From an uncultured virus (IMG/VR IMGVR_UViG_3300030095_002703) (taxonomy: Duplodnaviria > Heunggongvirae > Uroviricota > Caudoviricetes), in the IMG/VR virus record IMGVR_UViG_3300030095_002703: DNA of 20,000 nucleotides, one strand, 5' to 3'. A program made the position numbers and the translations under genes. The notes under the pieces are model-generated. The model saw only the letters and a program-made list of their open reading frames with translations. It was not told the DNA's origin and did no database searches. This document shows positions 4,721 through 18,682 of the stretch, one piece after another (the first letter of the stretch is position 1; each line of letters starts with the position of its first letter).

Positions 4721-5388
4721 GTATAAAACCTTGGTCATTCTCTAAAATAAAATCTTTTGAGCAATGCCCTAAAAAGTTTTATCACCTTAAAATATTAAAA
4801 GATTACAAGGAGCCTGAGACTGAGGCTATGTATTACGGCACAGCTTTTCATTTAGCCGCCGAAGAATATATACGTGATGGTACACCACTCCCTGAGAAGT
4901 TTATGTATGGTAAGGCAGTACTTGATTCTCTTGCCGCCAAAAAAGGTGATAAGCTATGTGAGTTAAAGATGGGGCTTACAGAAAATTTAGAACCATGCGG
5001 ATTCTTTGATGATAATGTATGGTGGAGAGGCATAGCAGATTTAGTTATATTAAACGAAGAAGATAAGGTAGCATGGGCTATAGATTATAAAACAAGTAAG
5101 AGCACTAGGTATGCAGATAAAGGTCAGTTAGAATTAATGGCTATGGCATTGTTTAAACATTTTCCTAATATAGAGACAGTGCGTGGTGGCTTAGTATTTG
5201 TAGTGTGTGATGAGTTAGTTAAAGAAGAGTATGAACATACAGTTGCATCGAGCCTGTGGACTAAGTGGCTAACCGATTATAGTCGTATGGAGAAAGCGCA
5301 AGAAAAGAATGTATGGAATGCAAACCAAAGTGGCCTGTGTAAACGTCACTGTGTGGTGACTGAGTGTGTATATAACGGGAGGAACTAA
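4717..5388 (+). CDS. Cas4-like / RecB-family PD-(D/E)XK exonuclease
   Basis: WSFSKIKSFEQCPKKF, GTAFH, RGIADLV and IDYKT, plus C-terminal LCKRHCVVTEC. One N-terminal and three C-terminal Cys match the Fe-S staple pattern. AAGGAG RBS before GTG. Confidence 0.9.
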   Translation: MSIKPWSFSKIKSFEQCPKKFYHLKILKDYKEPETEAMYYGTAFHLAAEEYIRDGTPLPEKFMYGKAVLDSLAAKKGDKLCELKMGLTENLEPCGFFDDNVWWRGIADLVILNEEDKVAWAIDYKTSKSTRYADKGQLELMAMALFKHFPNIETVRGGLVFVVCDELVKEEYEHTVASSLWTKWLTDYSRMEKAQEKNVWNANQSGLCKRHCVVTECVYNGRN

Positions 5389-5657
5389 TGCCGTACAAAA
5401 ATAAAGCAGATCGCAAGAAACAAACCAATGCTCCTAAGGGTACTAAAGAGCATAAGGCTCGTATGGAAAGACAACGAGCTAGACGTAAGATGGATAAGAA
5501 AGGTAAAGATGTTAACAAGAACGGTAAGGCTGATAAGCGTGAAGGTAAAGATGTAAGCCATAATAAAGCTTTGAGTCGTGGGGGTAGTAATAAAGATGGT
5601 GTTAGAGTAGAAAGTAGATCAGCTAATCGAAGTCGTAATTACAAAAAGAAAAAATAA
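5388..5657 (+). CDS. Small basic HNH-like endonuclease
   Basis: DVSHNKALSRGGSN...VRVESRSANRSR resembles the D-H..GG-N..N HNH core. Very Lys/Arg-rich. GGAGG RBS with TAATG coupling. Confidence 0.7.
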   Translation: MPYKNKADRKKQTNAPKGTKEHKARMERQRARRKMDKKGKDVNKNGKADKREGKDVSHNKALSRGGSNKDGVRVESRSANRSRNYKKKK

Positions 5658-5668
5658 TTTTTTGTGTG

Positions 5669-5871
5669 GACGCTTACCTAGATGCGTCAATAAATAGTTT
5701 GGGACGATCTCTACCCCTAGATTGTTTTGGAGTTTATATATTCTCTCCTTTAACCCAACAAAATCAGGTAGCTTGAGGTGCTTATCCTATCATCCCGACC
5801 TAGCCCTATCGGGAAGCGAAGCAGGGCTATTAACTTTTCGTGTGACGTGGACACCCATTTCACACTTTTTT
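5669..5871 (+). promoter_or_regulatory. Candidate structured RNA leader: two pseudoknots and a terminator-like hairpin
   Basis: Complementary segments read directly: GACGC/GCGTC with its loop pairing to ATCAGGTA; TCCCGA/TCGGGA with TAGCCCT/AGGGCTA; GTGTGA..TCACAC followed by T6. See findings. Confidence 0.55.
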
Positions 5872-5886
5872 GCATCGGAGAAATAA

Positions 5887-7422
5887 ATGAAAATAGTAGA
5901 TAACAAGGCGTTATTGTTAAGATTACGTAGTCCAAAACAAGTTACCACAGTAATACCTAAAAGCAAAGAATTAGAAAATAATAAAGTATTAGTTAATTGG
6001 GGTATAGAAGAAGCGCACGTACTTAGGAACTTAAATATAAAAGCGCCCTCTCCCATAGAACGCACATACCAATGGACAGGACAACACGCGCCATTTGATC
6101 ACCAAAAAACAACGTCCTCATTTTTAACACTTAACCGAAAGTCTTTTTGTTTTAACGAACAGGGTACAGGCAAAACAGCTAGTGCTATATGGGCATCTGA
6201 TTTTTTATTAGACAAAGGTTTAATAAACAGAGTGTTAGTGATATGTCCATTATCAATTATGGATTCAGCATGGCGTAATGATTTATTTACATTTGCTATG
6301 CACCGTACGGTAGATGTAGCTTATGGATCTGCTAAAAAACGTGAGGAGATTATAAACAACGGTTCTGAGTATGTAATAATAAATTATGATGGATTAGCCA
6401 TAGTAGAGAAAACTATAATAAATGGAGGCTTTGACTTAATAATAGTAGACGAAGCTACGCATTACAAAAATCCACAAACTAACAGGTGGAAAACTCTTAA
6501 TAGGGTTATAAATTCTAACACTTGGTTGTGGATGATGACAGGTACTCCTGCGGCGCAGAGTCCTATAGACGCGTACGGTTTAGCTAAGTTAGTAAACCCT
6601 AACAAAGTACCTAGATTTTTAGGGTCATTTCGTGATCAAGTAATGCGTAAAGTAACTAACTTCAAATGGGTTCCCAAAGATACAGCTACCGAGACCGTAC
6701 ATAGAGTATTGCAACCTGCTATAAGGTTTACTAAAGAAGAATGTTTAGACCTACCTCCTATGGTATATGTCAAACGTCAAGTAGAAATGACTCGGCAACA
6801 AAATAAATACTACAAAGAACTAAAAAGTAAGATGGTAATGCAAGCGGCAGGAGAACAAATATCAGCGGCAAATGCGGCTGTTAACATGAATAAATTATTA
6901 CAAATATCAGCAGGTGCAGTGTACACCGACAAAGGAGATGCATTAGAGTTTGATATAAAACACCGCTATAAAGTATTAAAAGAAGTAATGGATGAGTCTA
7001 GTAAAAAAGTATTAATATTTGTACCTTTTAAACATGTAATCGACATACTGACAGATAAATTACGTAGCGAAGGCATAACAACAGAAATCATACGTGGGGA
7101 CGTATCAGCACCAAAACGTACTGACATATTTAAAAGGTTTCAAGAACAAGACAATCCTAAAGTGTTAGTTATACAGCCGCAAGCCGCCGCGCATGGGGTC
7201 ACTTTAACAGCCGCAAACACTGTGGTGTGGTGGGGGCCAACTAGTTCTCTTGAAACATATGCTCAAGCTAACGCTCGTGTACACAGGTCAGGACAAGATC
7301 ATAAATGTACCGTTGTGCAGCTACAAGGTTCTCATGCAGAGAAACGTGTTTACTCATTGTTAGATAACAGAATTGACGTACACACAAAAATGATTGACCT
7401 TTACAAAGAAATACTTGACTAA
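5887..7422 (+). CDS. SNF2-family (SF2) helicase/ATPase
   Basis: Q motif PFDHQ, Walker A EQGTGKT, Ia VICPLS, Walker B IVDEAT, III MTGTP, V AHGVTL, VI QANARVHRSGQ. GGAG RBS at 5877-5880. Confidence 0.95.
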   Translation: MKIVDNKALLLRLRSPKQVTTVIPKSKELENNKVLVNWGIEEAHVLRNLNIKAPSPIERTYQWTGQHAPFDHQKTTSSFLTLNRKSFCFNEQGTGKTASAIWASDFLLDKGLINRVLVICPLSIMDSAWRNDLFTFAMHRTVDVAYGSAKKREEIINNGSEYVIINYDGLAIVEKTIINGGFDLIIVDEATHYKNPQTNRWKTLNRVINSNTWLWMMTGTPAAQSPIDAYGLAKLVNPNKVPRFLGSFRDQVMRKVTNFKWVPKDTATETVHRVLQPAIRFTKEECLDLPPMVYVKRQVEMTRQQNKYYKELKSKMVMQAAGEQISAANAAVNMNKLLQISAGAVYTDKGDALEFDIKHRYKVLKEVMDESSKKVLIFVPFKHVIDILTDKLRSEGITTEIIRGDVSAPKRTDIFKRFQEQDNPKVLVIQPQAAAHGVTLTAANTVVWWGPTSSLETYAQANARVHRSGQDHKCTVVQLQGSHAEKRVYSLLDNRIDVHTKMIDLYKEILD

Positions 7423-8839: not shown

Positions 8840-9538
8840 ATGAGTTATATTATTGAAAATGTAGAAATACTTTATCCACGTATTAATCAGCCGTATAAGT
8901 TTGATTCTGCGGCAGGAGAGAACGGTAAAAGTGTGCCGTGTGATCCATTTGATGATGGGGCAAAGTATGAAACAAAGTTTCGCATGGAGAAAGATCAAGC
9001 CAAAGCTTTGTATGCGAAGATGACAGAATCTTATTTAGCGGCTAAAGAAAAAAATTGGCCGGATAAGATTGACTTTCCATTTGATAAACAAGAAGATGGA
9101 ACTTATGTAGGTAAAGCCGTGCTTAAAGCGGCGTATGGTAAAGATGCTACAGCACGGCCTAAACAGTATGATGCTAAGAGCACCGAACTGCCTGAAGATT
9201 TTAAACTGACTACTGGCAGTACAGGCAATGTAGCGGTAACATTTTATCCGTATTATATGCGTGAAGCAGGTGTATCTATCCGATTACGCGCAGTACAGGT
9301 TGTTAAGTATGTACCATTGGAGTCTGCATCACCGTTTAGTGCAGTAGATGGATTTGAAATGGAGGCAAGTGATAATCCATTTAAAACTGCTAAACCTACA
9401 CCTAAAGTAAGTGACGATGTTTTTGAAGATGAACCTGCTCCAGTAAAAGAGCCAAAAAAGGTCGCTAAAACAAAAACAGTAGCGCCAAAAGAAGCCGACA
9501 AGGACTTGGCCTCAATCGTTGATGAGTGGGACGACTAA
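8840..9538 (+). CDS. Single-stranded DNA-binding protein, T7 gp2.5/DUF2815-like OB fold
   Basis: ILYPRINQP...KYETKF...GSTGNVAV...GVSIRLRAVQVVKY pattern, then a Lys/Pro-rich linker and an acidic aromatic C-terminus (IVDEWDD). AAGGA RBS. Confidence 0.75.
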   Translation: MSYIIENVEILYPRINQPYKFDSAAGENGKSVPCDPFDDGAKYETKFRMEKDQAKALYAKMTESYLAAKEKNWPDKIDFPFDKQEDGTYVGKAVLKAAYGKDATARPKQYDAKSTELPEDFKLTTGSTGNVAVTFYPYYMREAGVSIRLRAVQVVKYVPLESASPFSAVDGFEMEASDNPFKTAKPTPKVSDDVFEDEPAPVKEPKKVAKTKTVAPKEADKDLASIVDEWDD

Positions 9539-9629: not shown

Positions 9630-12388
9630 ATGGATACTAAAACTTTTTTGCAGAATACTCTTAGTAGTGAAGGTCGCTACTGTGTGTTTGCATTTCGCAC
9701 AGAAGATGATAGGAGAGTTCAAAAGTTTTATTCTTCTATAGATCATGTGGTAGACGCGGCACAAAAATTAGACTCTCAAGGCTATGATACTTACTTTGCC
9801 TTAGCAACATTCAACGAAGATAACTCACGTAAAGTTAACAACGTAAACAAACTTAAATCTTTTTTCCTTGATCTTGACTGCGGTGTTACCAAAGACTACC
9901 CCGACCAAGACCAAGCAATAAAAGCATTATCTCAATTTTGTAATACTCTTTCTTTACCAAAGCCTATGCTTATAAACTCAGGACGAGGCGTACATGCTTA
10001 TTGGTTTCTCTCTGAAGATGTATCTCCACTTGATTGGGTTCCTGTAGCAGAACACCTAAAGAAGTTATGTGGTACTCACAAACTCTTGGCAGATCCCGCA
10101 GTGACTGCTGATGCCGCTAGAATACTACGAGTGCCTAAGACACATAACTATAAGACTAGCCCTCCTTCTCCTGTTGACTACTTTGTAGGGGATGTACCCA
10201 AGCCTGTAGACTTTGACGCGTTTGCTGAGTTACTTGGTATGGATATGATACCAGTTCCTACAAAGATAGAAGGTGGGGTTAGCGCGTTTAGGGAGGCGTT
10301 AATAAAAAACAACGATAATAAATTTAAGACTATCATTGAAAAAACTATAGCAGGTGTAGGGTGTGAGCAGATAAAAATAATAGCCACTGACCAAGAAAAT
10401 TGCAGTGAGCCTTTGTGGAGGGCAGGGTTATCAATAGCAAAGTTTTGTTCTGACGGCGTTAGTGGAGCTAAGTTTATATCTCAAAAACATCCTAATTATT
10501 CTCCAGAAGCTACCGCAGACAAGTTAGAAAACATAAAAGGGCCGTATCTTTGTACTTCTTTTGATGAATTCAACCCTGAGGTATGTACTGATTGTAAACA
10601 TTGGGGCAAAATTAAGTCCCCCATATTGCTAGGTCGCACTGTGGTAGAGGCTAGCAAAGAAGATAATATGGTAGAAGTTCTTGTAGATTCTGAAGATGAG
10701 TTTGGTGATACGGCTACGTACTCTATACCTACATACCCTAAACCTTATTTTAGAGGGGCTAACGGAGGTATATACCTACGAACTAAAACTTCTGACGGCG
10801 AGATAGACGAAAGACTTATATATCATAACGATTTATATGTTACAAAACGTATACGCGATCAAGAAGTAGGCGAGTCTATAGTCATGCGTTTACATTTGCC
10901 TGTAGATGGTGTGCGAGAGTTTACAATACCTTTAACAGCAGTCACTTCCCGTGATGAATTTAGAAAACAAATGTCTATGCAGGGGGTGGCAGTGACTAAA
11001 ATGGACGATCTTATGGCTTATACAACAGCATGGGTAAACGAGTTACAGGCTACTAATGTAGCTGATGAGGCCCGCAGACAATTTGGTTGGACAGACGATA
11101 CATACAAATCATTTGTTATTGGGGATAAAGAAGTATTTGGAGATAGGGTAGGATCTAATCCCCCTTCTACTGCTACAGCAGGTTTGTTTGATTTGTTTAA
11201 ACCTAAGGGAACTTTAGATGAATGGAAGTTATTGGCTAACTTCTACGATAGAGAAGGATTTGAATTACACCAATACATAGTAGGGACTTCTTTCGGTGCT
11301 CCTTTGATGGAGTTCTCCCCTATAGCTTGCGCAGGGTTTCACATACATGGTACAGGTGGAGAAGGTAAGACTACCGCCATGTTCGTAGGGGCATCGGTAT
11401 GGGCAGAGCCAGATGGGTTTGTTATGCAGGAGAAGGACACTAATAACTCTACAATGAACAGGGGGGAGGTCTACCACAACTTACCTTTATACCTTGACGA
11501 GTTAACTAACGCTAGTGGTGAAGTGTTATCTCAGTTAGCTTACCAATTATCAGGAGGTAAACAACGTGCCAGAATGTCAGGTGGTAGTAATGTAGAAAGG
11601 TTTCGTGGTAAGCCGTGGAACCTGTTATCTGTGAGCACTGGTAATACAAGTTTTATAGAGAGGGTAAGTATGTTTAAAACCATACCGAGGGCAGAGGCAC
11701 AGAGGATATTAGAGACCAAAGCTGTTAAGTTATTTAAAAAGTCAGAGACTAAGCAAGAAACAGATGCACACCAAGCAAGGATCAAGAAAGTGCATGGTGT
11801 AGCAGGTAAGATATACATACAGTTTATAATTAATAATTTAGATGAAGTAAAAGCTCTACTACAAAGAGTACAAATAAAGATTGATAAGGAAGCTAACTTA
11901 ACTTCTGAGAATAGATTTTGGTCAGCAGGGGTAGCGGCTACGCTTACAGGATTGATAATAGCTAAACGTCTAGGGCTTGTTAACTACAATATGAAAAAGC
12001 TAAAAGCCTACGTGTTAAAGTTATTAGCAGAAAATATGAGGGCCGTTAGCGATATGAACACTCCTGTGCACGATACTTTAAATAGTTATATCCACGAGCA
12101 TTGGGGTAGCATACTAAAAATCCAAAGCACTGACGATTTACGTAAAGGTCAGGATAACGGTCTTGATGGATTAATCATACCTGAGTTAGATCCTAAAGTT
12201 AGGTTAGTAGGTAGGTATGAAACAGATACTAAGATGGCATACCTAGTACCAAAACAATTAAAGAAATGGTGCGGCAAACAGCAGATAAATTACGGGTCTT
12301 TTATTCAAGACCTTAAAGAAAAGATGAATGCCAAACCAGTAGTAATAAGACTTACTAAAGGCACGTCTACTCAACTACCTGCTACTAG
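9630..12388 (+). CDS. Primase-helicase fusion: AEP/RepB-like primase, Cys-rich linker, DUF927 P-loop helicase; 3' end lost in the gap
   Basis: Primase motifs FLDLDCG, NSGRGVHAYW and DAARILRVPKTHN; Cys cluster GPYLC-x10-CTDC; RRQFGW; Walker A GTGGEGKTT; Walker B LYLDE; STGN. The ORF runs into Ns at 12389. Confidence 0.88.
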
Positions 12389-12398
12389 NNNNNNNNNN
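12389..12398. other. Assembly/scaffold gap (10 N)
   Basis: Run of ten n characters; the true gap length is unknown. Confidence 0.99.
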
Positions 12399-12587: not shown

Positions 12588-12624
12588 GCCCCCTATTCGT
12601 TGCCGAGACGGTAGGGGGTTTTTT
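12588..12624 (+). terminator. Rho-independent terminator between convergent gene blocks
   Basis: GCCCCCTAT-tCGT-tgccgag-ACG-GTAGGGGGT stem-loop followed by a T run (12619-12624), overlapping the stop codon of the minus-strand gene. Confidence 0.85.
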
Positions 12625-15600
12625 ATTGTCTATACTCCATATTACTTCTCATAATCGCATACTCCATAAGGGGGTTAACCGTAACACCGTTATGCATTTT
12701 AGCACTAGTGCGCATGTGAGCATCAACAGAGCTAGATATTTGTTCTGGAGTTATTGGCACAGTGGGGTGTCTCTTATTATGAGCTATTATATCTTTAAGA
12801 ACCTCTCCCATAGTTTCATGGTCTCCCATACGTTGAGCTACATAGAATTTTTTAGTCAGTTTAGTTCTTTTTTGTGTTATAGCTCGCTCTACACCTTTAT
12901 TTCTAGCATTCTGTTCTTGTCTAAAAGTATATTCAACAGGGGGAAAGCCTAACGCTTGGGCCGCAAAATCTCCAAAGGTCATATCATCATATATAGGATC
13001 ACTTCTCCTAGTACGTATACCTCCCTCTCTAGCATACCTACCTACAGTACTACGATAAAAATTGGTTAAACCCGCAGGAGCTAGGTTTTCAAGCCCTCGT
13101 TCTATTTCTCCATCACCTAAGTCTCCTATACCACGATATAACCTGTTAGCAGTGCTAAGTGAAGGGCCGCCTAAATAATAAGCTAAACTCTCTTCTAATG
13201 ATGGATCTTTATTAAATCTGTTTTCTTGTAATAACAAACCTGTAAGCCTTACACGACCAGCTACATCTATACCAGTAAGCTCTGCTATAGCACCTTTATA
13301 CCAACCTTCATCTACAAGTTTACGAAATGCTGTATCTGCATCATCTTCTTCATCGTCAAAATAAAACAAGTCAAACAACATAGATATTGCACCGTAAAGA
13401 GGTATGCCTTGAAGCCCTGCAAAAAATACAGCGGCTAGATGTATTCCTGCTAATTGTTTTAGAGCCATATTTCTTAGCTCACTGTTAGCATTTTCACCAT
13501 ACATATTATTTATAGCCAACTTACCGGCTTTAATCATAGAGTAATACATTTGTAGACCATAACTTTTATACATTAGAGCTATACGTCCTATACCTTGTTG
13601 AGAGTATCCCACAGCAGTTTCTAATACTGCGCCGCCGTTAGTTTCTTGAGTAAGATATAGAGCTTCTTCAGCCGCTTTCTGCATACGCTCACTCATACTA
13701 GAAGGGACATCTATAAATTTACCATCAACCGCGCTATAGTATTTTTTATTAGCATTCATTTTGTCTAATATTAAGTTATAGCTAGCAGTAAGAGTCACCT
13801 GCCTATTGAACCTTTCGGCAGAACTAAACATGATTGCGGATGCCGCAGAAACTCCATCTAAAAATCTTAACGCTTTATTACTACTACTCTTGCGTCCTAG
13901 ATCGTCAACCCCTAATTGGTCTCTTAGTTCTGAGTGATATATCTGCCCTCTGTCATTAGCCATTTTAACCAAGGGGATCATTCTTTCCATCATAGCTATT
14001 TTTTCATTAGCTTCTTTAGCAGTAGGATAAGCCTTGCGTATTTTGTTTTTTACAGAATTTTTTAAAGTGTATACATCATCTTTAACATCATAATATTCGT
14101 CTATAGATAATTTTGACGCGCCCACAAACTTAGTAGCTTGAGCTATGGCTTTGTTAGTATTGTTTATACCAAACTTGCCTGATAGAAATGGCCCTACTAC
14201 TAAAGGTATTTGAGATAGATTAACTAATGCAGATGACGCATTGAATCCAATGGTGTATATAAATGCTAGTTGGTTTGATCTTTGAAAATATTTTTCAGTG
14301 GCTTTATTATTTGCACCTGTTCGTGCAAACTTGGCTCTCAGCCGCATCTCTTCTCTTACACTATTAAAAGTGGTTTGTTTTATACCTTTAGGAGCATCTT
14401 TAAAATTAACCGCTTCTATTTCTTTTTCTATTTTTCTTATTTCTGCTACAGCCTTCATTTTTTCTATCTGGGCGGTTAAGTCATACCCTTTATTTTGCAT
14501 AGCGTCGCGTACATCTCTATCATACCCTAATACGTATTTACGTTTTTGTAGGGATTTAGCAACAGAAGTTTCAGGTAACGATTCAATAAACAACCTCATT
14601 ATTTGTTCTTGCATCGCCGAATCTGCATCCTTACCGCTAGCGGATATAACATCTAATACGTCAGAAACAAAAGACTCAGGAGGAGCGTTTTTAAATCTAG
14701 AAGGATTAGTCTCTCCATCGTAAGATACAGGATCTCCTACTGTATTAGGATCAGACTTTACTTCTTCTAACATATTATCTCGTTGTGTTCTGTTCTCAAA
14801 CATTAAGAACACAGGCTCTACTCTACCGTCTATAGTAGTGTCAAAAGATAATTTATACTTGCCTTGTCGCACTAACGGAAAATATACTTCTAACTCACGA
14901 GCCTGTGCTAAACGTTCGTTTATTTGTTTCTTTAGTCTAGTCTTTTGTGGGGTTACTTTCCCGTCTCCTAAAGCATCTATTTCACCATTAATAATTTTAA
15001 CTAACGCTTCGTACAGGTTTTTGTAAGCAGCGCGTTGAGCGTTAAACTGATCTTGTCCGCTTTTACCTAAAGCATTCCAATCTTTACGTTGAGCTTTCCA
15101 GATATCTTCTAAATTATTACCACTGCTATCGGTCTTACCTTTATAATCACTTTGAGGTTTGTTAGGGTCTACTTGATATATAGTAGCGCCGTAGTCAGAA
15201 TGATAAACCAAACGATCTAAAGCTTCTTTCGCTTCTACCCCGTTTTTCTTTACCCAAGCATCATAGTCGGCCAATACAGCTTTTATTTTTTTATTAGCTT
15301 TTTGAATGCCTCCTCTTTGCCTTTCAAACGCTACATGTAATTGTTGTCCTAAAGAACCAAAACCAACGTTTCTTGCTATATCTCCTAATGCTTGAGAGCC
15401 AGTGAGTTTCATAAACACTTCTTTTGTTTTTATATTGACTTCTTTACCTGCATTCAAAAAGTCCACTGCATTTTTTACAAAAGGCTTTTTATTTCCAGAG
15501 GATACAAGTTTCTGAATATCTCCCATGTCTTTTAACATATCTTTAACGCCATCAGGCGTAGCATCTAATACGCCAGAATTTCTTGTGTTAGCATTGGGAG

Positions 15601-18600
15601 ATAATGAGGCCATAATTATTGTATCAGCGGCATCAAGCGCAGAAGTTAATGGTTTAGCATCCATGCCTATAAGCCTACGTACTAAGTTAGTAACTGTTCG
15701 TAAGAATCTTTGTAAAGCGTTTATCTTTTCGCCTTTTGGATTTATAGACGCTAACTTACGTTGAAACACAGGGTTACTAAAAGCTTCAGCTACAAAATCA
15801 TTAAGGTTTTGTGCTCCGTAGGCGGTGTCTAAATAAGGTTTAACGTCGTTATATAAAACATTTAATTGTTTAGTAACAGGACTTGACTTGTTGTTAAGTA
15901 TATTTACTGTAGCCCCGTGCGTAGCTTCATGTAACACAGAATGAACTGTCATACCTGTATTAGGATCTAAGGTAATAGTGTTAGTTTTAGGGTCAAAAGT
16001 AGATACAGCACTGCCATCTACGTTAGCAATGTCTATAGACACACCTTCTAAATTATTAGACAACGCTCTAGCAATTTGTTTAACGCGTTTACTTGTAGAG
16101 GTTTCAGCTAAATTTTGCAATGCGCGTTTTAAATCGCCATTTTTAATTATTGTTTTAACAGCAACAGTTAAATCGTTATCCAAAGCAACTGCTTCTTTAG
16201 GATCTAATCTCAGGTTAAGTACGTCTATCTTACCCCCTGTGTCTAAAAACGCTTGTGTGTCTCGTTCTATTCTTTCTCGTGCACTTTCTTTAGTTTCTTT
16301 TGGAGCAGGTTTAATTTTAGCTTTACCCTGTACTTTTTCGACCGCATCAGCGACACGCGCTAATTCTTGCTCTTCTTTACTTAGTTTTCTTTCTGCTCTA
16401 GGAGTTTCTTTAACTACTCTTTCAGCTTTCTTTTTAGGTTTGGACGTACCAACAACTTTTGCTTTACCATCTGTAGCACTGTCTACTGCTATAGCAGTTT
16501 TAGTATCACGTTGTTTTATCTTAGTATCTTCTTGTTCTTGTTTAGCTCGCGTTGTAACATCTTTTTCTACTTTAGTTGATTCTTTTTGTTGTTCTACAAT
16601 ACGTCTATCTATTTCAGTTTTAGCGTCAGGACTTAAGTTATTTTCTATCCACTGCAATGTAACCTTAGTATTAGAGCCACCTGTACCAGCAAACTTAGCT
16701 TTTTCAGAAGTAGGAGTGTCTTTTTGTGCTCTAAACTTAGGTGTGTTTTCTGCAATTTCAAAAGCTATAGCTGTAAAAGCGTCAGCAGGGCGTTTAAATT
16801 TTTTAAGGTATGTTTGGGCAGTTTGTTCAACGCCTTTTTCATCACGAGGTATTTTCTTATTAAGTAATGTATTTATAGCTGTCACATCATTAGGGTTAGT
16901 AAACTCTGCGCCACGAGGTACGGCAGTGGGAAACTCTATACTTCCCCTTATGTCAGAACTAGTATCAACAGGAGCTTCTACTTCAGTCTTAACTTGTTTA
17001 GGTGTAGTAGCTTTCTTTGGAGTTTTCCGGGGCGGTGTAAAAACGTCTCCAGTTTGAGCTGCATCGCGCCTTTGTTTAGGTTTAGTTTTTAAAGAGTCAG
17101 GTATTAGGGCTTGCGTTGCTTCTGATATGTTAGCATCTTTTAATATCTTTCCTACGTCTGCTATTTCAGGCGCACTGCCTAATGTCCTAGGTTCAGCAAC
17201 GGTGTCAGCTAATGTTCGAGGTCTACGTCTAGTTCTTTGTCTTTTTTGTATATCTTTAAGTGCAGGTTGTTGCGGGTCACTTGGTCTACGTTCTTTTATT
17301 TGCGCTTCTATATCTTGCAAACCCGCCTTATCTTCATCAGCAATAACCATGCGTTCTATTTCTAAATCGTCAACTTCTTTAGCCGCATCCTCTTGACGTT
17401 GCATTTCTGCTAATTCAATATCTTCAGCAGCGGTTCTTTCTGCTATTGTACGATCTTGAAAATCAGAGTATCTAACCTCGTCTATTACGTCAGGTTGTTC
17501 TTTTATCTGATCATCGTCTTCTATACGTTTTGTTCTTTCTTCTTCAGCAGCACGTTCTGCCATAGCGTCAGCTATTTCAACATCACTAATTTCAGTAGGG
17601 CTTGTTCTTTCTGCTTGTTCTAGTTCTTCGGGAAATAAATCGCGTTGTTCTCTAGGTATGCGCACTGCGGCACTAGGCATGTCTCCTAATGTTATTTCAT
17701 CTTCTGCTTCTTGTTCTCTTCTGGATCTTTCTTGCGATCTTCTAACTTCTTCTTGTTGTTCGCGTGTGCCAGCCTCTCCAGTAGGACTTACTAATATATC
17801 ATCAGATGGCGCAGGTAATAGCCCTGCAATGCCTTCCTCTTCACCAAGCTGTTCGTCTTGAGGACTTTTTGTTCTTGCGCCTCTTTTACCTGATATGAGA
17901 TCTGCCAGCACTTGAACTATAGCGCCCGCACCGCCGCCAATCATACCTTCTTCAATTACTCCAGCATCAAGTAATTCTTTTTCGGGGTTGTAACCACGCT
18001 CGTTTAGATTTTGTAGTATAGCAGCAGAAGCTTCTTGCGCCATTTCAACTATGCCAGTAGCTCCAGCATTGCGTACGCGACTCATAACCCCATCTATAGA
18101 ATCAGGGCCAAGTTTATCCATTATTTTACTTAAACTTTCTATCTCAAGTCTTTTAGCAATTCTACCTAAAGGAATGACTTCAGTTAATCCAATAAGAATA
18201 CCACGACGAGTAGCAGCATTGCGTTCTTCTTCTGTAGCCTCACCTGCACGAGCACGTTCACTAGCCTCACCTGCACCTGCACTACCTGCAATAATCCCTG
18301 CGGCGGGCAATGCGGCGGGGCCAAGCAAGGCAGTAGGCAGTAAAGCGCCAATAGAACCAACACCAGACGCTAATTTATAAGATATTGCTTCTTTATCTCC
18401 ACCTTCAGGACGTAAAAAGTTAGCTGCGTCTTGTATTTTTTTGCGAGCTTTAAGTTCTTCTTCCTCTTCTAGTAACGCAACAGCACCTAATCCAGCAGAC
18501 TCGTACATGCCTACTGCACCTGCGCCAAGACCAGAAGCTATATTTTCAAAAAAGCTTGAATCGCCGCTACCAGACTTTCCTACTTCTTGGCGTAGCCTTT

Positions 18601-18682
18601 CAACTAATATCTGTACAACTTCGTAATCTTCTTGTTCGTACGCACGTTGAATACCTCTTGATAGGTCATCTACATAGGCCAT
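12623..18682 (-). CDS. Very large (2019 aa) putative internal virion/DNA-ejection protein with a zincin-like HExxH domain
   Basis: AAGGA RBS upstream on the minus strand. N-terminal Gly/Ala-rich hydrophobic helices, a long charged low-complexity region, central FDPKTNTITL...VLHEATH...FVAEAFSNP, and a helical C-terminal half. Lies in the block opposite the replication genes. Confidence 0.8.
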   Translation of the reverse strand: MAYVDDLSRGIQRAYEQEDYEVVQILVERLRQEVGKSGSGDSSFFENIASGLGAGAVGMYESAGLGAVALLEEEEELKARKKIQDAANFLRPEGGDKEAISYKLASGVGSIGALLPTALLGPAALPAAGIIAGSAGAGEASERARAGEATEEERNAATRRGILIGLTEVIPLGRIAKRLEIESLSKIMDKLGPDSIDGVMSRVRNAGATGIVEMAQEASAAILQNLNERGYNPEKELLDAGVIEEGMIGGGAGAIVQVLADLISGKRGARTKSPQDEQLGEEEGIAGLLPAPSDDILVSPTGEAGTREQQEEVRRSQERSRREQEAEDEITLGDMPSAAVRIPREQRDLFPEELEQAERTSPTEISDVEIADAMAERAAEEERTKRIEDDDQIKEQPDVIDEVRYSDFQDRTIAERTAAEDIELAEMQRQEDAAKEVDDLEIERMVIADEDKAGLQDIEAQIKERRPSDPQQPALKDIQKRQRTRRRPRTLADTVAEPRTLGSAPEIADVGKILKDANISEATQALIPDSLKTKPKQRRDAAQTGDVFTPPRKTPKKATTPKQVKTEVEAPVDTSSDIRGSIEFPTAVPRGAEFTNPNDVTAINTLLNKKIPRDEKGVEQTAQTYLKKFKRPADAFTAIAFEIAENTPKFRAQKDTPTSEKAKFAGTGGSNTKVTLQWIENNLSPDAKTEIDRRIVEQQKESTKVEKDVTTRAKQEQEDTKIKQRDTKTAIAVDSATDGKAKVVGTSKPKKKAERVVKETPRAERKLSKEEQELARVADAVEKVQGKAKIKPAPKETKESARERIERDTQAFLDTGGKIDVLNLRLDPKEAVALDNDLTVAVKTIIKNGDLKRALQNLAETSTSKRVKQIARALSNNLEGVSIDIANVDGSAVSTFDPKTNTITLDPNTGMTVHSVLHEATHGATVNILNNKSSPVTKQLNVLYNDVKPYLDTAYGAQNLNDFVAEAFSNPVFQRKLASINPKGEKINALQRFLRTVTNLVRRLIGMDAKPLTSALDAADTIIMASLSPNANTRNSGVLDATPDGVKDMLKDMGDIQKLVSSGNKKPFVKNAVDFLNAGKEVNIKTKEVFMKLTGSQALGDIARNVGFGSLGQQLHVAFERQRGGIQKANKKIKAVLADYDAWVKKNGVEAKEALDRLVYHSDYGATIYQVDPNKPQSDYKGKTDSSGNNLEDIWKAQRKDWNALGKSGQDQFNAQRAAYKNLYEALVKIINGEIDALGDGKVTPQKTRLKKQINERLAQARELEVYFPLVRQGKYKLSFDTTIDGRVEPVFLMFENRTQRDNMLEEVKSDPNTVGDPVSYDGETNPSRFKNAPPESFVSDVLDVISASGKDADSAMQEQIMRLFIESLPETSVAKSLQKRKYVLGYDRDVRDAMQNKGYDLTAQIEKMKAVAEIRKIEKEIEAVNFKDAPKGIKQTTFNSVREEMRLRAKFARTGANNKATEKYFQRSNQLAFIYTIGFNASSALVNLSQIPLVVGPFLSGKFGINNTNKAIAQATKFVGASKLSIDEYYDVKDDVYTLKNSVKNKIRKAYPTAKEANEKIAMMERMIPLVKMANDRGQIYHSELRDQLGVDDLGRKSSSNKALRFLDGVSAASAIMFSSAERFNRQVTLTASYNLILDKMNANKKYYSAVDGKFIDVPSSMSERMQKAAEEALYLTQETNGGAVLETAVGYSQQGIGRIALMYKSYGLQMYYSMIKAGKLAINNMYGENANSELRNMALKQLAGIHLAAVFFAGLQGIPLYGAISMLFDLFYFDDEEDDADTAFRKLVDEGWYKGAIAELTGIDVAGRVRLTGLLLQENRFNKDPSLEESLAYYLGGPSLSTANRLYRGIGDLGDGEIERGLENLAPAGLTNFYRSTVGRYAREGGIRTRRSDPIYDDMTFGDFAAQALGFPPVEYTFRQEQNARNKGVERAITQKRTKLTKKFYVAQRMGDHETMGEVLKDIIAHNKRHPTVPITPEQISSSVDAHMRTSAKMHNGVTVNPLMEYAIMRSNMEYRQ

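Follow-up and report, generated by a model that had tools for sequence, protein, structure and literature searches.

A widespread family of pseudoknotted leader RNAs upstream of helicase and other genes in uncultured marine phages

A pseudoknot upstream of a SNF2 helicase gene in an uncultured virus (IMG/VR record IMGVR_UViG_3300030095_002703) belongs, as judged from comparison of related sequences, to an uncatalogued family (no Rfam match) of widespread pseudoknotted leader RNAs of uncultured marine phages. Pseudoknotted phage leaders are known as a general kind; the RNA family itself appears to be new, and the comparative evidence for its structure is unusually strong. Structured RNAs with such covariation are rare, and most of those that were followed up are riboswitches, ribozymes or protein-binding regulators. 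The RNA is common in marine viral contigs, of which no fewer than 200 carry the fold (scans for its type A and type B forms taken together); it stands at the entrance to replication genes and has no catalogued relative. All coordinates below refer to the window, which is the whole stretch of 20,000 nucleotides that was analysed.

The pseudoknot is located in a gap of 229 nt (5658-5886), the widest gap between same-strand genes in a phage replication module with a family A DNA polymerase, a PD-(D/E)XK exonuclease, a gp2.5-like SSB and a DUF927 primase as neighbours, and it heads a long same-strand gene block. The features around the gap are:

5388-5657, + strand: basic open reading frame of 89 aa (phrog_4590), immediately 5′ of the gap
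5877-5880, + strand: Shine-Dalgarno sequence GGAG
5887-7422, + strand: SNF2 helicase gene (SNF2-rel_dom, E 4e-24; Helicase_C, E 6.7e-17), with its ATG at 5887-5889
8840-9538: gp2.5-like SSB gene, about 3 kb downstream of the knot

The knot starts 136 nt past the stop codon (5655-5657) of the upstream reading frame, and its last base lies 57 nt 5′ of the helicase ATG. A -1 frameshift pseudoknot, which lies 5-9 nt behind a slippery heptamer within overlapping reading frames, was considered and is excluded by this distance from the stop codon. A coding reading is excluded as well, since the insert within the RNA (P1, below) varies in length and its lengths are no multiple of three. ARAGORN found 0 tRNA or tmRNA genes in the window, and no promoter-like site was found on the + strand between 5300 and 6300. 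The 89-aa upstream protein is very basic with a lysine run at its end, and it is 75-80% identical across relatives with and without the RNA. A tie between the RNA and this protein was rejected, as the protein occurs without the RNA and the RNA also occurs behind unrelated genes.

The earlier note on this DNA had described stem 1 as TCCCGA (5793-5798) paired with TCGGGA (5809-5814) and stem 2 as TAGCCCT (5801-5807) paired with AGGGCTA (5823-5829), with 13 Watson-Crick pairs within 37 nt (5793-5829) and loops of 2, 1 and 8 nt as read along the sequence. Coordinates and pairs of both stems are exact, and so is the description of a GC-rich element in AT-rich DNA (62% G+C versus 39% for the window). 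Interleaved perfect stems of 13 or more pairs within a span of up to 60 nt number 2 in the window versus a mean of 4.3 (sd 2.9) in 100 dinucleotide-preserving shuffles, and the window sequence alone thus does not exceed chance. For the whole gap the MFE z-score is -1.9, only slightly better than shuffles. The second interleaved stem pair (12204-12245, 6 + 8 pairs) is AT-rich and lies within the primase reading frame, and the shuffles yield about four such structures per window.

The RNA extends over approximately 5669-5829 on the + strand, and the compact perfect knot of the earlier note, although its pairs stand, is the 3′ core of this larger RNA and not a stand-alone unit of 37 nt. Its parts, together with the hairpin that follows, are:

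5669-5688, + strand: hairpin H1, GACGC (5669-5673) with GCGTC (5684-5688), 5 Watson-Crick pairs and a 10-nt loop
5677-5768, + strand: pairing PKa, H1 loop bases 5677-5679 and 5681-5683 with ATCAGG (5763-5768), A5680 bulged
5689-5757, + strand: variable region H2, in which GGAG (5729-5732) can pair with the anti-Shine-Dalgarno-like CUCC (5745-5748)
5757-5830, + strand: core, match to covariance model R1 (68.3 bits, E 2.4e-14)
5771-5817, + strand: helix Pa, GCTT (5771-5774) with AAGC (5814-5817), which extends stem 1
5776-5788, + strand: insert P1, separating Pa from stem 1; in the window it forms a weak hairpin of 3 pairs
5793-5814, + strand: stem 1 (S1), 5794-5798 with 5809-5813, the sixth pair of the earlier reading being 5793/5814
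5801-5829, + strand: stem 2 (S2), 5801-5807 with 5823-5829
5840-5871, + strand: hairpin P5, outer stem 5840-5845/5860-5865 and inner stem 5847-5850/5855-5858, followed by T6 (5866-5871)

H1 is located just past the upstream stop codon. PKa has six Watson-Crick pairs in the window, encloses H2 and ends three bases before Pa. P1 interrupts the 5′ strand of stem 1 and ranges among relatives from about 12 nt without a hairpin to more than 50 nt. On the 3′ strand Pa adjoins S1 directly, so that stem 1 is effectively a 9-pair helix. The 8 nt given for loop 3 in the earlier note are correct as the length in a plain knot, but 4 of the 8 bases (AAGC, 5814-5817) pair with GCTT (5771-5774), and the true loop 3 is GAAGC (5818-5822). 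As a consequence of the same pairing, the sixth pair of stem 1 (T5793-A5814) competes with T5774-A5814. Each of the two outer pairs of stem 2 is formed in just 50 of 72 relatives. Little or no variation is seen at several unpaired positions, a part of which, including CGAAGC, was set by the search patterns described below; the GAA of loop 3 is not invariant, with deviations in four loci (L050, L051, L052 and L004).

The conservation of the fold was investigated in 80 IMG/VR loci with tblastn-confirmed relatives of the helicase (55-85% protein identity), in the upstream regions of which the same knot was found with different stem sequences. A type A pattern, made from the 5′ half of the knot plus CGAAGC and making no use of the helicase, retrieved at least 120 further stretches, those listed reducing to 84 distinct cores. 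In alignment A1, a MAFFT alignment of 72 distinct full-length leaders, 92.7% of 1912 cells are standard pairs, versus 37-42% in controls with the 3′ partners displaced (slid) by 1-3 columns. Changes on both sides were seen in 17 of the 27 pairs, and five helices show compensatory changes. None of 500 column shuffles attained the observed values; as the sequences are mutually related, these shuffle counts are no probabilities. The slid-partner controls, like the prokaryote negative controls given below, preserve the relatedness among the sequences.

All parts of the fold contribute to this result. Among the 72 relatives, H1 is paired in 97.3% of cells with 3 of 5 pairs changed on both sides, PKa in 94.7% with 3 of 6, S1 in 96.7% with 3 of 5 and S2 in 91.3% with 5 of 7. 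One column pair of PKa alone is UA in 29 sequences, UG in 22, AU in 7, CG in 5 and GU in 5. For Pa, the strands were extracted by fixed sequence anchors without looking for complements, the 5′ strand being the four bases after a conserved UA. All 4 pairs form in 83 of the 84 distinct sequences among the matches listed, in 17 strand combinations. This amounts to 335 of 336 pairs versus 271 +/- 3.8 with shuffled partners, with 0 of 2000 shuffles equalling the observed value, and to 15 G-U pairs versus 1 A-C pair. The core alignment, with 84 sequences among the matches listed, had the same outcome as A1, and Pa is 97.9% paired in it.

Covariation of both stems in homologous leaders, which the earlier note had proposed as a check on the knot, was looked for and is present in 72 type A, 84 core and 48 type B sequences, with compensatory changes in both stems in more than 130 distinct sequences. 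S1 and S2 are both supported as conserved RNA pairs, as the H-type topology of the earlier note demands. In the paired columns G-U combinations outnumber A-C combinations 141 to 47 on the + strand, which points to selection on the + strand RNA and not on duplex DNA. On this comparative evidence, the structure is under selection as RNA.

The search with covariance model R1 gave 36 matches in 81 sources, every one of them upstream of the helicase and on the helicase strand. In the window 5757-5830 is the sole match on both strands, in a search with a model whose alignment includes this very sequence. R1 is positive in 34 of the 80 helicase loci, to which L007 is added by eye, and the element is absent from about half of the close helicase relatives. 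Five near-complete viral genomes (55-82 kb) have one real copy each; a second weak R1 match in one of these records (G005) is not a knot. Among the matches listed, approximately 70 of the 84 distinct cores have the N-terminus of the helicase directly downstream. A few have a small inserted PDDEXK_14 nuclease gene or another gene in this place, 11 have no ORF of 60 aa or more in the available downstream DNA, and 1 looks like a chance match. The PDDEXK_14 phage endonuclease gene is found between the leader with P5 and the helicase in L037 (2091-2501), L187, L188, L119 and L123, and the assignment was made in L037 (E 1.4e-30), the sole copy scanned. In seven relatives without the knot (L005, L056, L062, L067, L071, L074 and L077), two different conserved hairpins, both small, lie some 50 nt ahead of the helicase start. 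These hairpins, between the basic reading frame and the helicase, may be an alternative leader.

Seven helicase loci harbour a shorter form, type B, which has neither H1, H2 nor loop 2 and in which loop 3 is GAA. The unit is approximately 75 nt, a size that suits immediate biochemical and structural work. A type B pattern in which only S1 and CGAAG were fixed, leaving the 3′ arm of S2 free, matched at least 97 stretches in viral contigs. The S2 arm is fully complementary (6 pairs) in 92 of the 106 matches listed. In 48 distinct sequences among the matches listed 89.2% of cells are paired, versus at most 46% with slid partners, and Pa, P1 and S2 all show changes on both sides; the S1 pair adjoining Pa is fixed by the search pattern. 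P1 is here a purine-rich/pyrimidine-rich hairpin that is paired in 71% of cells, with all 6 pairs showing changes on both sides, and anti-Shine-Dalgarno-like 4-mers occur in 69% of the P1 regions versus 20%. In the type A leaders, the corresponding motifs are found in H2, where CCTCC occurs in 48% of 66 sequences versus 3% of shuffled ones and CTCC in 67% versus 13%, an enrichment that is indicative only, as these rows too are mutually related. In the relatives inspected by eye, the H2 motif is placed in a hairpin loop.

The genes behind type B comprise the helicase, a Rha-like regulator, an exonuclease VIII-like gene, HTH proteins and several uncharacterised genes. Type B also precedes small proteins with an RNA polymerase alpha-CTD domain, and in L253 (77-316) and L263 (523-825) the RNA polymerase alpha C-terminal domain downstream of type B was matched with E 8e-10 to 8e-12. 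The genes upstream of type B are mutually unrelated. In 15 of 45 type B sequences, an upstream ORF of at least 40 codons ends in frame at the UA(A/G) before Pa; a function as stop codon was rejected, since 15 of 45 is approximately the one-third predicted by reading frame alone. Tandem copies occur in several type B contigs, at 87-nt spacing in L251, L256, L260, L264, L290, L296 and L315; further tandem pairs are in L287, L313 and L047 (1009-1194). Each copy has its own Pa partner, and L251 possibly has three copies. An odd member, at the 81st percentile among the helicase loci, is L007 (560-640), with an 8-pair S2 of unrelated sequence, an unchanged S1 and a matching Pa. In this locus S2 is followed directly by U7, a Shine-Dalgarno sequence and the helicase start, and stem 2 itself looks like an intrinsic terminator.

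The family was found to be confined to marine viral contigs. DNA nearly identical to 5300-6500 (95-97% of sampled words) is present in 14 seawater or marine DNA runs of 12 coded studies dated 2014-2025, showing that the phage is widespread in the sea. BLAST of 50,697 records of cultured phages with the window, the leader and the type B unit gave no real match, six matches at E 0.9 being rejected as chance. The closest cultured helicases are only about 40% identical, leaving no annotated relative to read from. In prokaryote genomes, one per species, the type A pattern had 31 matches, 0 of them with a complementary S2 arm; about 70 were expected by estimate, and the pattern is thus found at roughly chance frequency. 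The type B pattern had at least 120 matches in the same genomes, and a complementary S2 arm was seen in 0 of the 120 listed. These searches consequently gave no host or prophage copy and no host assignment, and they serve as a clean negative control for the viral matches.

The earlier note had stated that the knot does not match the preQ1, SAM-II/V or guanidine-III classes, and the covariance-model search agrees. With the 4227 models of Rfam there were 0 matches in the window at the gathering score, nothing over 5757-5830 at E up to 10, and 0 in 20 related loci at E up to 1. A type III antitoxin RNA (ToxI-like), in which short pseudoknot repeats in tandem precede a toxin gene, was rejected on the single copy in the window, the lack of conservation of the downstream genes and the lack of an Rfam match. 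A full-text literature search turned up no description of the motif. The supplement (file 5) of an IMG/VR survey, PMC10690425, which reports 10,006 unnamed candidate RNAs, lists DNAVirus_1070, _1473 and _1549, among others, at most 25 bp upstream of SNF2-domain genes. These candidates share with the present RNA the IMG/VR source and the SNF2-domain gene downstream. The main-text passages searched never mention a helicase, and the motif may be among the 10,006 candidates.

The function to which these observations point, a plausible reading held tentatively, is that of a cis-acting regulatory leader or attenuator in which the folded knot would be the recognition domain for a small-molecule or protein effector. 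Cis action, regulation and the existence of an effector are what this reading adds to the observed structure, conservation, strand, copy number and contexts. The position fits a leader, upstream of the helicase, on its strand and with one copy per genome. The RNA would be read through from the upstream polymerase/exonuclease genes. It folds as a double pseudoknot, in which the H1 loop pairs with 5763-5768 and the loop of the extended stem 1 (Pa + S1) with 5823-5829. As a leader it would set the level of expression that passes into the helicase-SSB-primase genes.

The output could take three routes, and the parts downstream of the knot look modular, resembling expression platforms. The first would be through terminator-like signals, which are P5 with U6 in the window and elsewhere a U-rich tract directly after S2. 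P5 in the window has 6 + 4 pairs followed by T6 and looks like an intrinsic terminator, although a simple terminator scan did not list it. Its consensus in 12 helicase leaders has 9 pairs, 4 of which are changed on both sides, with a U-rich run next to it that is weaker in relatives, and the Shine-Dalgarno sequence and start codon come after. Of 63 type A sequences 23 have the U-rich tract directly after S2, as do 22 of 45 in type B, versus 14% at random places. The second route would be through the ribosome-binding site, as some members have the start codon 4-10 nt after S2, where others have P5 and the U-rich run in between. The third would be through the CUCC/CCUCC anti-Shine-Dalgarno-like element held in a hairpin, although pairing of such a motif with a Shine-Dalgarno sequence is of a kind that cannot covary. 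Inspection by eye of leader folds and listings showed no mutually exclusive pairing of the knot with P5 or the Shine-Dalgarno sequence. Between S2 and the next start codon lie 4 to about 190 nt, depending on the member, a range for which a single steric mechanism cannot account. The functionally mixed genes behind type B argue against autoregulation by any single protein. They also show that the earlier proposal of a cis-regulatory RNA controlling the helicase, right in that the RNA precedes this gene, was too narrow; the regulation itself remains the inferred part of that proposal.

The earlier note had likened the knot to the T4 gene 32 translational operator, and both are indeed small H-type pseudoknots placed 5′ of a gene for phage replication, in its leader. 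The analogy breaks down in context, as the downstream gene is the SNF2 helicase or another early gene and not, as in T4, the autoregulated gene of an SSB, and a hairpin precedes the ribosome-binding site. The T4 operator has an open A/U-rich tract leading to the ribosome-binding site, whereas P5 (5840-5865) fills this space here, and the marine-phage RNA adds to the knot a further helix, an insert and another long-range pairing. The T4 operator has no Rfam model, according to a passage of PMC10690425.

There is also a likeness in size, H-type topology and short A-rich loop 3 to the preQ1, SAM-II/V, fluoride, guanidine-III and NAD+-II aptamers. These small pseudoknot riboswitches also have variable expression platforms, at a ribosome-binding site or a terminator, and occasional tandem copies. 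They differ from the marine-phage RNA in that it has no covariance-model match, is found in phages only at one locus per genome and has no identified switching helix, and its gene context suggests no ligand. Riboswitches usually precede several genes of one pathway; confinement to marine viral contigs at a single copy per genome is unusual for them and counts against the regulatory reading.

An RNA of purely structural function, working without any effector, is a possible explanation, if one on the unlikely side. It could be a put-like read-through element or a terminator of unusual, pseudoknotted build, or it could act as a shield that protects a long untranslated gap from Rho or RNases. The excess over chance of terminator-like signals after the knot (P5 with its U run, and the U tract in 37-49% versus 14%) speaks for it, as does L007 with its 8-pair S2 directly before U7 and a Shine-Dalgarno sequence. 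The restriction to phages, the occurrence once per genome where a long same-strand gene block begins and the lack of an alternative "off" pairing by eye fit it as well. It leaves out of account the many members with neither P5 nor a U tract, and a simple shield or terminator would need neither five covarying helices nor such conserved junction bases. The put RNAs of phage HK022 are similarly phage-specific cis-acting RNAs that precede terminators where an early operon begins, in one or two copies per genome. They are two plain hairpins just after a promoter and are not known to form a pseudoknot, whereas no promoter-like site was found for the marine-phage RNA at 5300-6300 of the window and many of its members lack a following terminator.

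Within the preferred reading of a cis-acting leader with an effector, a narrower version is doubtful as matters stand, namely that the family is a ligand-sensing RNA class, a riboswitch, of lytic marine phages only, which would read a cellular or infection-state signal and gate replication or early genes. It would act by way of a pseudoknot-embedded terminator stem (S2 or P5) together with the hairpin-held anti-Shine-Dalgarno element. A sensor of such a signal would give a direct handle on the timing of replication in uncultured marine phages.

It is unlikely that the RNA is a self-cleaving ribozyme or a host RNase site, which would separate the upstream message from that of the helicase or early genes, or free unit-length RNAs from tandem copies; if it were a ribozyme, a new catalytic fold would be added. 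In favour of it, the pseudoknot is compact, one variable stem is optional and the bases at the junctions are conserved; in 50 of 72 type A sequences the S1 pair adjoining Pa is G-U, the location is intergenic among varied neighbours, and tandem copies 87 nt apart occur in several contigs. Small ribozymes are moreover common in phage and metagenome sequence. Pistol and HDV-like ribozymes resemble the marine-phage RNA in a hairpin loop that pairs with a downstream strand, in a further adjacent helix and in their place between phage or metagenome genes, but their strand order appears to differ. No Rfam ribozyme was matched even at E up to 10. Read-length contigs from RNA libraries cover 5757-5907 and 5790-5940 exactly and so span the element and the start of the helicase gene. 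Such contigs reveal neither the ends nor the strand of a transcript nor transcription itself, and stretches that they leave uncovered carry no meaning; the bridging is weak evidence against cleavage, because DNA carry-over is possible.

Quite improbable is a free-standing, trans-acting phage ncRNA, for instance a decoy that shows anti-Shine-Dalgarno-like or other motifs to host or phage factors and is next to the helicase only incidentally. The differing neighbours of type B, the tandem copies and the hairpin-displayed CCUCC motifs would agree with it, and the hairpin and U6 of the window could end a transcript of about 210 nt. Against it stand the absence of a promoter-like site on the + strand at 5300-6300, the many members in which the next start codon comes 4-10 nt past S2 with no terminator between, and the 15 of 45 type B sequences in which the RNA begins at an upstream stop codon. 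Inverted repeats arisen by chance, or a signal at the level of DNA (an operator or an origin, for instance), which the window by itself would allow (2 knots versus 4.3 +/- 2.9), are already refuted, as far as comparison allows, by the compensatory changes of both stems in the more than 130 distinct sequences, the great excess of G-U over A-C on the + strand and the 0 of 31 and, among those listed, 0 of 120 prokaryote matches with a complementary S2 arm.

Two further observations concern the window outside the RNA. A run of 10 N at 12389-12398 lies near the 3′ end of the primase reading frame. On the minus strand, a reading frame of 2019 aa (12623-18682) converges on the replication genes, and over its last 750 residues, at the C-terminus, it matches PHROG families with the annotation DarB-like antirestriction (E 5e-37).
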